Virus record (IMG/VR): IMGVR_UViG_2534681662_000018
Source: a virus
Lineage: Duplodnaviria > Heunggongvirae > Uroviricota > Caudoviricetes
Length of the DNA: 33,372 nt
Reading direction: 5' to 3' (one strand)
Within the stretch, counting starts at the first letter, position 1; every line of letters begins with the position of its first letter. This document shows positions 9,512-12,345 of the stretch, in pieces. Both the position numbers and the translations under genes were made by a program. The notes beneath the pieces were generated by a model. The model saw only the letters and a list, made by a program, of their open reading frames with translations, did no database searches and had not been told where the DNA came from.

Positions 9512-9584
9512 AAGTGTCTCCTGTTTCAGTTGATGTTCACAAAGGCCGCGCTAACGCGTGGCCTGTATTATGGAGATACGCAAT

Positions 9585-10134
9585 TATGCGCACATCCCTG
9601 ATTAAATTAATCCATGTCGCCCGTCGGGAGCTACAACTCGACGACGACACCTACCGTGCCTTTCTGATGCAGAACACGGGCAAAATCAGTTGCCGTGAGC
9701 TGACCGTCGCGCAACTGGAGCTGGTGCTCGATGCCATGAAAGAACGCGGTTTTAAGAAGCAGAATAAACACCCACGCCGTCGCTTTAAGGGGCATGTCAC
9801 GCCCCGCGAAAAGGTATTAAAAATCTGGCAGCAAATGACAGAAGACGGTTTTATTGCCGATGGCAGTGATACAGCACTGGATAAATACGTCGAACGACTG
9901 ACAGCCAGACGCAACGGCGGACAGGGTGTTTCCACACTGGCGTGGTGTCATGGCGACACGCTGCTGACAGTCCTCGAAACACTCAAGCAGTGGCACATCC
10001 GCTGTATTCGTGAAGCCTTTTCCCGTCACGGGCTTCCGTTGCCGGTCAGTCCGTCCGGTCGTGAACTGCGCGGCTATGATGCCATGACGGCGGCTTATGC
10101 CCATGCCAGAAAGACACGGAGGATGGCACAATGA
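9585..10134 (+). CDS. gemA: GemA, host gene-expression modulation protein (183 aa)
   Basis: ATG at 9585 preceded by GGAG; track ORF starts at GTG 9514. Assignment by position immediately upstream of mor. Confidence 0.75.
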
Positions 10135-10520
10135 CGGAAGATTTATTTGGTGATTTGCAGGATGACACCATCCTGGCACATCTTGACAATCCCGCCGAGG
10201 ATACGTCACGCTTTCCGGCACTGCTGGCGGAGCTGAACGATTTACTGCGCGGGGAATTGTCCCGGCTGGGTGTTGATCCTGCCCATTCACTGGAGATTGT
10301 TGTGGCTATCTGTAAGCATCTGGGCGGCGGTCAGGTCTACATTCCACGCGGTCAGGTTCTGGACTCGCTGATTCGGGATTTGCGTATCTGGAATGATTTT
10401 AACGGTCGCAACGTCAGCGAACTGACCACCCGTTATGGTGTCACTTTCAATACGGTATACAAAGCCATTCGCCGGATGCGACGGCTGAAATACCGCCAGT
10501 ACCAGCCCTCACTTCTGTAA
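10131..10520 (+). CDS. mor: Mor, middle operon regulator (129 aa)
   Basis: ORF 10131..10520; C-terminal region paralogous to protein C encoded at 11313 (shared FNGRN motif and HTH). Confidence 0.9.
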   Translation: MTEDLFGDLQDDTILAHLDNPAEDTSRFPALLAELNDLLRGELSRLGVDPAHSLEIVVAICKHLGGGQVYIPRGQVLDSLIRDLRIWNDFNGRNVSELTTRYGVTFNTVYKAIRRMRRLKYRQYQPSLL

Positions 10521-10597
10521 ACAGTAAAGCCGGTTAATCCGGCTTTTTTTACGTCCTCAATATCCTGTGATGAATAACCGTACCGGGGAAAATCATC
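10521..10597 (+). promoter_or_regulatory. Middle promoter Pm region (Mor-dependent), overlapping the terminator dyad
   Basis: Only intergenic region between mor and the middle-operon ORFs leading to C. Exact -10 and start site not resolved. Confidence 0.45.
10524..10550 (+). terminator. Rho-independent terminator of the early transcript (t9.2-like)
   Basis: AAAGCCGG-TTAA-TCCGGCTTTTTTT hairpin plus T-tract directly after the mor stop; about 9.26 kb from the phage left end. Confidence 0.75.
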
Positions 10598-10816
10598 ATG
10601 GGTAAAGGCTGGAATGCATCCTTTCATCTTGGCAGACGTGAGCGGCTGCGTCAGGAGGGTTTGCACCGTGTCGCCGGTGGGCCACGTCCTGCGCCCCGCG
10701 ACTATACCGGTCATGATGGCACCCACGGCAGTTATTACATGAAAGGCTGGCAGTCAGTTGATATGCCGGAAATTCTTCATCATTGCCTGCTTTACAGGGA
10801 GAAACATTATGTCTGA
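10598..10816 (+). CDS. Middle-operon hypothetical protein (72 aa)
   Basis: ORF 10598..10816, first ORF after Pm. Confidence 0.5.
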   Translation: MGKGWNASFHLGRRERLRQEGLHRVAGGPRPAPRDYTGHDGTHGSYYMKGWQSVDMPEILHHCLLYREKHYV

Positions 10817-11171
10817 GCGTTCTGCTCGTCAGTGGCCTGATTTTTTATCGGTGGTGTTACTGGCGCTGTTATTGTGGATAAGTCTGTTTTGTGGCTGGCG
10901 CGCGCTGATGTTTTGCTGTGCCTCGGTTTTCAGTGTTGCTTTATGTGTTGCCGGTGATTGTCTGGATGCGCTGATAATGAGCTGCCGGGTGCCTGAACAT
11001 TTTGCCCGGTTCGTCTGGCCGCTGACCTGGCTGGGGAGTCTGTCCGGGCTGGGATTAGCCGTGATGGCAACTTCTCAACTGAAAACGGGTCCTGAGCATG
11101 TCATCTGGGCGCTGGCCGGATTGCTGACGTTCTGGCTCTCCTTTCGTTTTCGCGCTCGTCTGTTCGGGTAA
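10809..11171 (+). CDS. Middle-operon predicted integral membrane protein (120 aa)
   Basis: ATG at 10809 preceded by AGGGAG; hydrophobic segments (VVLLALLLWISLFCGW, LGLAVMATS, ALAGLLTFWL). Confidence 0.5.
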   Translation: MSERSARQWPDFLSVVLLALLLWISLFCGWRALMFCCASVFSVALCVAGDCLDALIMSCRVPEHFARFVWPLTWLGSLSGLGLAVMATSQLKTGPEHVIWALAGLLTFWLSFRFRARLFG

Positions 11172-11180
11172 AGGGGCACC

Positions 11181-11300
11181 ATGTACAGAAAATTCAGTGA
11201 TGAATGTTTCGGGCCGTCCACGCTGATTAGTGCGATAAAAGTGATTGCCCTTGTGGTTCTGATAACCATCAGTGCCGTGGTGTATCTTTCTGTCTGTTAA
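11181..11300 (+). CDS. Candidate 39-aa hydrophobic peptide (MYRKFSDECFGPSTLISAIKVIALVVLITISAVVYLSVC)
   Basis: ATG at 11181 after AAAGGGG; one predicted transmembrane helix; below the ORF-track length cutoff; fills the gap before C. Confidence 0.35.
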   Translation: MYRKFSDECFGPSTLISAIKVIALVVLITISAVVYLSVC

Positions 11301-11312
11301 CCGGGGGAAAAT

Positions 11313-11735
11313 ATGCAGCATGATTTATTTGAACACGATCCGGCAATTCGCCAGTTAATCGGACATATTGATAACATCCCGGCCCCGGAACTGGAATCAC
11401 GCTGGCCCCGTTCGGTGGTTGATCTGATTGATGTTCTGGAAAACGAACTGAAACGCCAGAACGTCAGCAATCCCCGTGAGCTTGCCCGTAAACAGGCCGT
11501 TGCCCTGTCCTGTTTTCTGGGTGGGCGGCAGTTTTATATCCCCTGTGGCGATACTATCCTGACCGCGTTACGCGACGATTTGCTTTACTGCCAGTTCAAT
11601 GGTCGTAACATGGAAGAACTGCGTCGCCAGTACCGCCTGTCCCAGCCGCAGATCTACCAGATTATTGCCCGCCAGAGAAAGCTGCATACACGGCGTCATC
11701 AGCCTGATCTGTTCTCACCTGAAAGCCCAAAATAA
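11313..11735 (+). CDS. C: C, late transcription activator (140 aa)
   Basis: ORF 11313..11735; Mor paralogue; MQHDLFEHDPAIRQLIGHIDNIPAPELESRWPRS... Confidence 0.9.
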   Translation: MQHDLFEHDPAIRQLIGHIDNIPAPELESRWPRSVVDLIDVLENELKRQNVSNPRELARKQAVALSCFLGGRQFYIPCGDTILTALRDDLLYCQFNGRNMEELRRQYRLSQPQIYQIIARQRKLHTRRHQPDLFSPESPK

Positions 11736-11736
11736 C

Positions 11737-11762
11737 CGGCATCCTGCCGGTTATTTCCTGTC
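11737..11762 (+). terminator. Rho-independent terminator after C (end of middle transcript)
   Basis: CCGGCA-TCC-TGCCGG hairpin followed by TTATTTCC. Confidence 0.6.
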
Positions 11763-11826
11763 ACCATAATCCCGCACCTGTCACCTGATTTTTTAGACTG
11801 CCATCAGAGCATTTTTTCAGGGAAGC
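11763..11826 (+). promoter_or_regulatory. Late promoter Plys region (C-dependent)
   Basis: Contains CCCGCACCT at 11771-11779, the same 9-mer found at 19355-19363 upstream of I, at similar distance from the start codon. Confidence 0.55.
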
Positions 11827-12345
11827 ATGATGGCGGGGATACCAAAAAAACTGAAAGCCGCACTGCTGGCGGCAACGATTGCCGGTGGTGGTGTGGGTGG
11901 TTATCAGGAAATGACCCGTCAGTCTCTGATCCATCTGGAAAATATCGCTTATATGCCTTACCGCGATATTGCCGGTGTGCTTACGGTCTGTGTGGGACAT
12001 ACCGGACCGGATATCGAAATGCGCCGTTACAGCCATGCGGAGTGTATGGCTCTCCTCGACAGTGATTTAAAACCGGTTTATGCGGCAATCGATCGTCTTG
12101 TCAGGGTGCCGCTGACGCCATATCAGAAAACGGCGCTGGCAACGTTTATTTTCAACACCGGTGTTACCGCATTCAGTAAATCAACGCTGCTGAAAAAACT
12201 CAATGCCGGTGATTACGCCGGAGCGCGTGACCAGATGGCCCGCTGGGTGTTTGCCGCAGGCCATAAATGGAAAGGACTGATGAACCGTCGCGAAGTGGAA
12301 ATGGCAATCTGGAATATCAGGGGGGCGGATGACCTTCGCCAGTAA
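11827..12345 (+). CDS. lys: Endolysin with N-terminal hydrophobic signal-anchor-release-like segment (172 aa)
   Basis: ORF 11827..12345 (alternative ATG 11830); N-terminal KKLKAALLAATIAGGGVGGY followed by lysozyme-like region. Confidence 0.88.
   Translation: MMAGIPKKLKAALLAATIAGGGVGGYQEMTRQSLIHLENIAYMPYRDIAGVLTVCVGHTGPDIEMRRYSHAECMALLDSDLKPVYAAIDRLVRVPLTPYQKTALATFIFNTGVTAFSKSTLLKKLNAGDYAGARDQMARWVFAAGHKWKGLMNRREVEMAIWNIRGADDLRQ

Follow-up and report, generated by a model that had tools for sequence, protein, structure and literature searches.

Genes 19 and 20 of the middle operon of phages Mu and D108 encode two small membrane proteins, and near-identical copies of both are found in the window analyzed here, the whole 33,372-nucleotide stretch of DNA recorded as IMG/VR virus record IMGVR_UViG_2534681662_000018. 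Judged by its sequence, the window is a Mu-like prophage of the Mu/D108 type, and the two small open reading frames (ORFs), at 10809-11171 and 11181-11300, correspond to genes that are already known and annotated in these phages. They are genuine genes that are dispensable for growth and lysis, they are non-toxic, and their products are not lysis proteins. By comparison with related prophages, both genes are seen to evolve under purifying selection, clearly relaxed or diversifying when set beside that on their neighbors, and the gp19/gp20 family is, as far as database searches reach, restricted to Mu-like prophages of enterobacteria. The interpretation favored here, and only tentatively, is that the two proteins may be an accessory membrane effector of the conflict type, whose target during the lytic cycle would lie in the host or in a competitor.

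Identity and predicted structure of gp19 and gp20

Both ORFs lie exactly where a sequence-only reading of this DNA had placed them, and both products carry predicted transmembrane (TM) helices. A megablast comparison of positions 10100-11800 gave one ungapped, full-length alignment each to D108 (99.4% identity) and to Mu (99.0%), with no indels, and in the records of these two phages the window's ORFs are genes 18, 19, 20 and C, with mor upstream. Their identification as genes 19 and 20 follows from this level of DNA identity together with the matching proteins, the Mu/D108 annotation and full-length matches to PHROG families. The counterparts (Mup19 and Mup20 of Mu, E19 and E20 of D108) are thus the same genes, with the same position, promoter and terminator; gp19 and gp20 differ from those of Mu just by single-residue polymorphisms, and the prophage backbones differ elsewhere, at the immunity region and in portions of the semi-essential early region.

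Gene 19 (plus strand; ATG at 10809, TAA at 11169-11171) encodes an inner-membrane protein of 120 amino acids with four predicted TM helices. A Shine-Dalgarno-like AGGGAG at 10796-10801 stands 7 nt ahead of the ATG, and the start lies within the end of gene 18, which it overlaps by 8 nt (ATGTCTGA). All 120 residues are identical to those of D108 gp19 and 119 of 120 (99%) to those of Mu, the single difference being G49 in the window and A49 in Mu. The protein matches phrog_4975 at an E-value of 1.5e-72, with residues 1-120 aligned to positions 1-120 of a profile of 120, and its assignment to this family is consistent with the near-identity to Mu and D108 and with its position downstream of Mor and Pm, where it stands between gene 18 and genes 20 and C. 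Kyte-Doolittle analysis showed four hydrophobic segments, of which those at about residues 12-28 and 33-52 are strong and those at about 75-83 and 101-109 weaker; record AF083977 annotates four TM domains, with both termini inside. An AlphaFold model, built on a three-sequence alignment and of low confidence (pLDDT 58.7, pTM 0.35), places helices at residues 12-28, 30-60, 64-90 and 96-119, and a Foldseek search of BFVD with this low-confidence model returned nothing below an E-value of 0.1.

Gene 20 (plus strand; ATG at 11181, TAA at 11298-11300) encodes a peptide of 39 amino acids with one C-terminal TM helix. The ribosome-binding site that the sequence-only reading had assigned to this peptide is present, as a Shine-Dalgarno-like AAAGGGG at 11170-11176, 4 nt ahead of the ATG. 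The peptide is identical to D108 gp20 at 39 of 39 residues and to Mu gp20 at 38 of 39 (97%; S17 in the window, N17 in Mu). Its hydropathy profile consists of a charged, 13-residue N-terminus (MYRKFSDECFGPS) and a single hydrophobic segment that runs from about residue 14 to the extreme C-terminus, while AF083977 annotates one TM domain in an N-in, C-out orientation, so that the short N-terminus is predicted to be cytoplasmic. The match to phrog_19823 (E-value 8.2e-30, residues 1-39 on positions 1-39 of a profile of 39), the near-identity to the Mu and D108 peptides, the position directly upstream of C and the C-terminal helix all agree in placing gp20 in that family.

This peptide had been described as unlisted. 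That is so for the earlier ORF track and for E. coli chromosomes annotated by the Prokaryotic Genome Annotation Pipeline (PGAP), but the Mu and D108 records do annotate gene 20. On the RefSeq E. coli chromosomes compared here (loci L005, L006 and L007-L010), PGAP called genes 18 and 19 but in no case the 39-amino acid gene 20, even though its ORF is intact. Owing to this omission, a conserved membrane peptide goes unannotated in the Mu-like prophages of RefSeq E. coli chromosomes.

Genes 19 and 20 in the middle operon

Promoters and the terminator after C were placed in the window by way of the AF083977 annotation (L001 coordinate + 8599 = window coordinate). The Mor-activated middle promoter, Pm, maps to 10513-10583 on the plus strand and overlaps the hairpin and T-run of the early-transcript terminator; the hairpin (10526-10546) was also detected independently of the annotation. 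No sigma-70 consensus promoter was found in 10400-11900, which fits Pm because promoters of this type are activator-dependent and have no -35 hexamer (PMC4390567). Neither an internal terminator nor a consensus promoter was found between the early terminator and C. Genes 18, 19, 20 and C share one middle-phase lytic mRNA from Mor-dependent Pm, and they are tightly packed, with the 8-nt overlap of genes 18 and 19 followed by gaps of 9 nt between 19 and 20 and 12 nt between 20 and C. Gene order and the mapping of Pm and terminator thus bear out the earlier placement of the two membrane-protein genes in the middle operon with the late activator.

The first ORF of this operon, gene 18 (10598-10816, plus strand), encodes a soluble, basic protein of 72 amino acids that is one residue off both Mu and D108 gp18 and matches phrog_2121 at an E-value of 4e-35; its homologues carry the precomputed Pfam assignment PF26867 (Phage_Mu_gp18). 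The last is gene C, the late transcription activator annotated in Mu and D108 (11313-11735, plus strand; 140 amino acids), whose ATG lies behind GGGGGA, 12 nt past the gene 20 stop. The window's C protein is identical to that of D108 and differs from Mu C by S138T only. A terminator after C (11733-11756, plus strand) and the C-dependent late promoter Plys (11753-11819, plus strand) stand between genes 19 and 20 and the lysis cassette, occupying 11733-11819. The first gene of the late lysis transcript is gene 22 (lys; 11830-12345, plus strand), which encodes an endolysin of the signal-anchor-release (SAR) type by the account given in PMC9239132.

Lysis and toxicity

A holin-antiholin role for Mu gp19 and gp20 was proposed by Samanta et al. 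2021, as summarized in PMC9239132, and the sequence-only reading likewise offered a holin- or antiholin-like timing factor, together with a toxin, as roles for the two proteins. As a lysis-timing pair, gp19 would make a membrane lesion by which the endolysin is freed or activated, with gp20 in a modulating role. The attraction of the idea is plain, in that these are small membrane proteins encoded near the lysis genes, each with at least one TM domain, that Mu has no other holin candidate, and that in predicted topology they are like some holins (the argument of Samanta et al. as relayed in PMC9239132). They are not, however, late genes co-transcribed with the endolysin, but middle genes that the terminator and Plys separate from lys, a point also made in PMC9239132.

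Experiments with the Mu proteins, each one residue off its counterpart in the window, speak directly to both proposals. Chamblee et al. 2022 (mBio; PMC9239132) induced 19, 20 and 19+20 with arabinose in MG1655 and found viability unimpaired, even after 2 mM dinitrophenol, under conditions in which the positive controls, lambda S105 and phage 21 S68, were lethal. A construct combining all Mu candidates was likewise non-lethal, and dinitrophenol delayed Mu lysis rather than hastening it (PMC9239132). Lysis was not significantly altered when 19 and 20 were inactivated (Mathee & Howe 1993, as cited in PMC9239132). [quoted passage not shown] That conclusion agrees with the earlier observation that the window's lysis cassette lacks an obvious holin.

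Comparison with known lysis proteins leads in the same direction. Like gp19 and gp20, the holin-antiholin S105/S107 of lambda and the pinholin S68/S71 of phage 21 are small inner-membrane proteins encoded near lysis genes. In contrast to these, gp19 and gp20 are non-lethal, are not triggered by depolarization, are not needed for lysis and have no dual-start motif; no sequence or profile similarity links the two groups, and scans of Pfam, PHROG and NCBIfam matched gp19 and gp20 to no holin family. The Mu-encoded single-pass membrane protein that does account for holin-less lysis is gp25 (DUF2730). This product of a late gene is oriented N-out, C-in, has a cytoplasmic domain and is what the SAR endolysin requires to be released (AF083977 and PMC9239132), features that neither gp19 nor gp20 shows. 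Viable phages without gene 19 also exist, among them SfMu and several Yersinia Mu-like phages. A holin-antiholin or lysis-timing function is accordingly very improbable.

A membrane-damaging peptide that kills or arrests the host, in the manner of a type I toxin, is scarcely credible either. In its favor, gp20 is short and hydrophobic and resembles type I toxins in size and shape. Set against this are the harmlessness of induced 19, 20 or both in MG1655, expression confined to cells already committed to lysis and, as weak negative evidence, the failure to find in the region either an antisense promoter-like site or an RNA family already known. The holin/antiholin and toxin readings are disposed of by these published results on near-identical proteins.

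A subtler contribution to Mu development at the membrane, such as a pre-conditioning of the inner membrane for the SAR endolysin and releasin, for DNA replication or for packaging, with effects too slight to register in earlier assays, is quite unlikely. Expression just ahead of the late genes would suit such a helper, as would the co-occurrence of genes 19 and 20 with DUF2730 releasin genes in every lineage seen, and together with gp22, the spanin subunits and gp25 the two proteins form the small membrane-protein set of Mu (PMC9239132). A gp22-gp25 clone nevertheless lyses cells without genes 18-21 (PMC9239132, Fig. 2A legend); the lack of a significant lysis effect on inactivation and the absence of gene 19 from many functional phages argue in the same sense.

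A second lineage and the mode of selection

In a second clade of Mu-like prophages from E. coli (L013, L014, L024 and L025) the operon is diverged and has the order mor - GH108 - 18 - 19' - 20' - C', where GH108 is a gene of glycoside hydrolase family 108. In these prophages 19' encodes 123-126 amino acids and 20' encodes 40, with an overlap where 19' stops and 20' starts. Between the window and L013, the ratio (omega) of nonsynonymous (dN) to synonymous (dS) divergence and the protein identity set genes 19 and 20 apart from those around them: mor (88% identity, omega 0.07), gene 18 (83%, 0.045) and C (75%, 0.10) are well conserved, and gene 19 (42%, 0.21) and gene 20 (38%, 0.39) are not. The neighbors have dN values of 0.07-0.14, gp19 one of 0.52 and gp20 one of 0.43, and gene 20 evolves at four to seven times the rate of its neighbors. 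Compared with an allele of 85% identity (L011; P0002), gp19 gave an omega of 0.29 and a dS of 0.26, versus 0.02-0.08 in the flanking genes.

The two small peptides, gp20 and gp20', have in common an N-terminal motif, MYR(K/R)FS(D/N)EC, and a hydrophobic helix of equal length. In both genes the annotated plus-strand frame 0 alone stays open in both lineages; two antisense ORFs, at 11055-11321 and 11075-11269, were rejected as candidates, their reading frames not being kept in the diverged lineage. Because omega falls at 0.2-0.4, a single open frame is conserved and the PHROG matches are full-length, 19 and 20 are taken to be genuine protein-coding genes. Their arrangement in the sequences compared indicates that 19 and 20 have stayed together in two lineages that are deeply diverged, and that gene 20 can also persist alone.

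The 5' end of gene 20 is exceptional in this comparison. Its first 30 nt (11181-11210 in the window, 5372-5401 in L013) differ at two positions, and the remainder is about 50% diverged; both differences are conservative replacements, and none is synonymous. The conserved end may mark a recombination boundary, may reflect the overlapping gp18 tail found in phages that lack gene 19, or may be due to a constraint at the nucleotide level.

Near-identity at this end in lineages otherwise so diverged is one of several points that would suit a rather different function for gene 20, that of a translated leader from which ribosomes re-initiate at C, thereby determining how much of the late activator is made, with the peptide of minor importance and gene 19 a passenger. 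Gene 20 always lies directly upstream of C, with a gap of 12 nt in the Mu type and 10 nt in L013, and with an overlap of 11 nt where the frameshifted gene 20 of L007 and L010 runs into the start of C. It also stays where gene 19 has been deleted. Such a leader is nonetheless unlikely: C has a strong Shine-Dalgarno sequence of its own, the GGGGGA; the RNA of the 20/C junction folds no better than shuffled sequences (z = 0.22), so that nothing obviously needs unmasking; and the preservation of helix length and N-terminal motif at 38% identity and an omega of 0.39 implies selection on the protein. An Rfam scan of the region gave no relevant match.

Distribution of the gp19/gp20 family

A word-indexed search of 5.8 billion proteins, for which the gp20 query was lengthened by one upstream codon, recovered six gp19 clusters and four gp20 clusters. 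One further genuine distant relative, P0014, came from 1.84 billion representatives scanned exhaustively with HMMER. A profile search yielded 11 clusters in all, and every one with a named source is from E. coli or Salmonella. Two other matches of the exhaustive search, P0012 and P0013, were dismissed as compositional, since they aligned in multiple stretches at 29-30% identity and P0012 is a 711-amino acid repeat protein. No relative of gp19 was found in a scan of species-representative genomes.

Searches of function-annotated families were equally unrevealing. A Pfam scan of gp18, gp19 and gp20 produced nothing significant (the best were DUF4190 at an E-value of 0.5 and DUF3566 at 0.0085, both under the gathering score). 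With the diverged gp19 included, NCBIfam gave no significant match and PADLOC gave at best a non-significant match to 2TM_IV (E-value 0.056, 10.8 bits). The PHROG families that match gp19 and gp20 carry no assigned function.

Within E. coli the two genes differ in their persistence. The region is carried by 41 of 5,426 complete genomes, all 41 of which have the gene 20 segment and 20 of which have gene 19. Among 26 loci that were compared individually, gene 20 is present in every one; gene 19 is intact in 18, frameshifted in one (L023) and absent from seven, in a sample skewed toward carriers of gene 19 through having been retrieved in part with a gp19 query.

Where gene 19 is missing the deletion is clean. 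In SfMu-type phages and prophages (SfMu itself is L003, 1299-1629; also L007, L008, L010 and L012) the equivalent of 10813-11181 of the window is lacking, and the junction sits at both start codons, which share an ATGT microhomology. The gp18 tail in gene 19-less loci gains four C-terminal residues (VQKIQ) and overlaps the start of gene 20 by four codons, and the gene 20 start is GTG in several of these loci and ATG in others. Several Yersinia Mu-like phages lack gene 19 as well.

Frameshifts have touched both genes. In L007 and L010 (about 1489-1629), which have a diverged allele of gene 20, a 2-nt deletion near the 3' end of the gene replaces the last five residues, YLSVC, with SFCLLTGGKYAA and leaves the TM helix in place. 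In L023 (3001-3288; P0003) a frameshifted gene 19 encodes 95 amino acids, with the frame lost past residue 76, and the 27 member sequences of the P0003 cluster show that truncated gp19 is in circulation.

A possible role in conflict at the membrane

The tentative case for an accessory membrane effector is built on this comparative pattern. Lineage restriction, fast protein evolution, presence/absence polymorphism and location in an operon slot that accepts cargo are the usual signature of accessory conflict genes, and the slot does accept cargo, as a GH108 gene enters the same operon in several relatives. Synthesis of the two proteins would precede the build-up of late proteins, and their target would be a membrane component, either the host's own or one from a competing phage. 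They might block DNA entry of a superinfecting phage during the lytic cycle, superinfection exclusion being the third role that the sequence-only reading had offered, or they might silence or tune a host membrane protein, as small single-helix regulators do with larger membrane proteins. Since gene 20 is retained throughout and gene 19 is missing from roughly half of the relatives, gp20 would form the core of such a module and gp19 a partner that is optional.

Analogies for both modes of action are at hand. T4 Imm, P22 SieA and HK97 gp15 are short, non-essential, fast-evolving inner-membrane exclusion proteins with one to few TM helices, to which gp19 and gp20 can be likened, and T4 Imm is made during lytic growth. 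MgrB, AcrZ, MgtS and CydX represent a class of proteins of fewer than 50 amino acids, with a single TM helix and a short cytoplasmic tail, and gp20 belongs to the same size class. Scans of Pfam, annotated PHROGs, NCBIfam and PADLOC detected no homology of gp19 or gp20 to the three exclusion proteins, and gp20 has no sequence relationship to the small regulators.

A more specific version, somewhat doubtful as it stands, makes gp20 a membrane effector of the lytic phase, joined optionally by a co-evolving gp19, that would shield a Mu infection in progress either by excluding competitor DNA or by disabling a membrane-bound abortive-infection or stress system of the host. Such an effector would explain why gene 20 is retained, without a laboratory phenotype, in all enterobacterial Mu-like prophages examined, why its rate of evolution is four to seven times that of its neighbors and why gene 19 comes and goes.

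Several considerations weigh against a conflict function. No phenotype of any kind has been reported for 19 or 20, and the function is proposed from the evolutionary pattern alone; no published test of superinfection exclusion by the Mu genes was found. The requirement of Pm for Mor means that the genes are silent in lysogens, which makes superinfection exclusion of the lysogen type impossible and leaves only exclusion during lytic growth. The loss of gene 19 from half of the relatives and the frameshifts in L023/P0003 and in L007/L010 also fit a near-neutral drift toward loss, and fast evolution is equally expected of proteins constrained just to stay hydrophobic. Similarity to exclusion, defense or anti-defense families was not found in Pfam, PADLOC or NCBIfam, or by Foldseek against BFVD.

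Two publications that might seem to bear on the question do not. A phage Tn-seq preprint that names gp19 and gp20 concerns other phages, and a paper on exclusion genes of Fc02 deals with genes that are not related to these and lie in the regulatory region of a transposable phage from Pseudomonas.

Other features of the window and its relatives

The window begins with host DNA, about 1.26 kb of non-phage flank up to approximately position 1259, before the left end of the prophage, and it ends inside gene S. Relative to D108, the immunity region (repressor/ner) is different and three segments of the semi-essential early region have been replaced; the stretches that differ are 1-1259, 1618-2778, 5798-6113, 8300-8831 and 9224-9589. 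One of the replaced early segments contains an ORF of 252 amino acids (8244-9002), absent from D108, with a Cys-rich, zinc-ribbon-like C-terminus.

The GH108 gene, absent from the window, encodes a muramidase of 186 amino acids with a PG_binding_3 domain and is inserted between Pm and gene 18 in several Mu-like phages and prophages (L004 1304-1864, L006 949-1509, L008 649-1209, L009 740-1300, L013 4237-4797, L014 2584-3144 and L024 about 2237-2797). The insertion occurs in loci that have gene 19 and in loci that lack it, and it brings a second muramidase under the control of the middle phase; how a cytoplasmic GH108 enzyme would get to the cell wall in a holin-less phage is puzzling.

Lysis genes vary among the relatives as well. 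In the diverged clade (L013 6018-6758, L024 4027-4767) the lysozyme has just 142 amino acids and a different, proline-rich C-terminal tail, and a DUF2730 releasin homologue follows it directly, with no DUF2570 i-spanin gene between; the lysis cassette of these two prophages seems to be rearranged or partly deleted. In E. coli RM8082, which carries the best-matching E. coli prophage, the endolysin gene is frameshifted (L005 2810-3324) and is annotated by PGAP as a pseudogene, so that this prophage is probably lysis-defective.

Significance for the Mu middle operon

The existence of genes 19 and 20, the membrane nature of their products, the holin/antiholin hypothesis and its experimental rejection were already in the literature or in GenBank. 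The comparison adds the restricted family, the universal presence of gene 20 in the relatives examined, the presence/absence polymorphism of gene 19, the co-diverged 19-20 pair of a second lineage and a selection regime that is purifying but relaxed. The residual value of this is modest and lies in the comparative pattern and in the role of the non-essential middle genes of Mu; for the three such genes of the operon, the pattern narrows the experiments that are worth doing on what they contribute to the phage.

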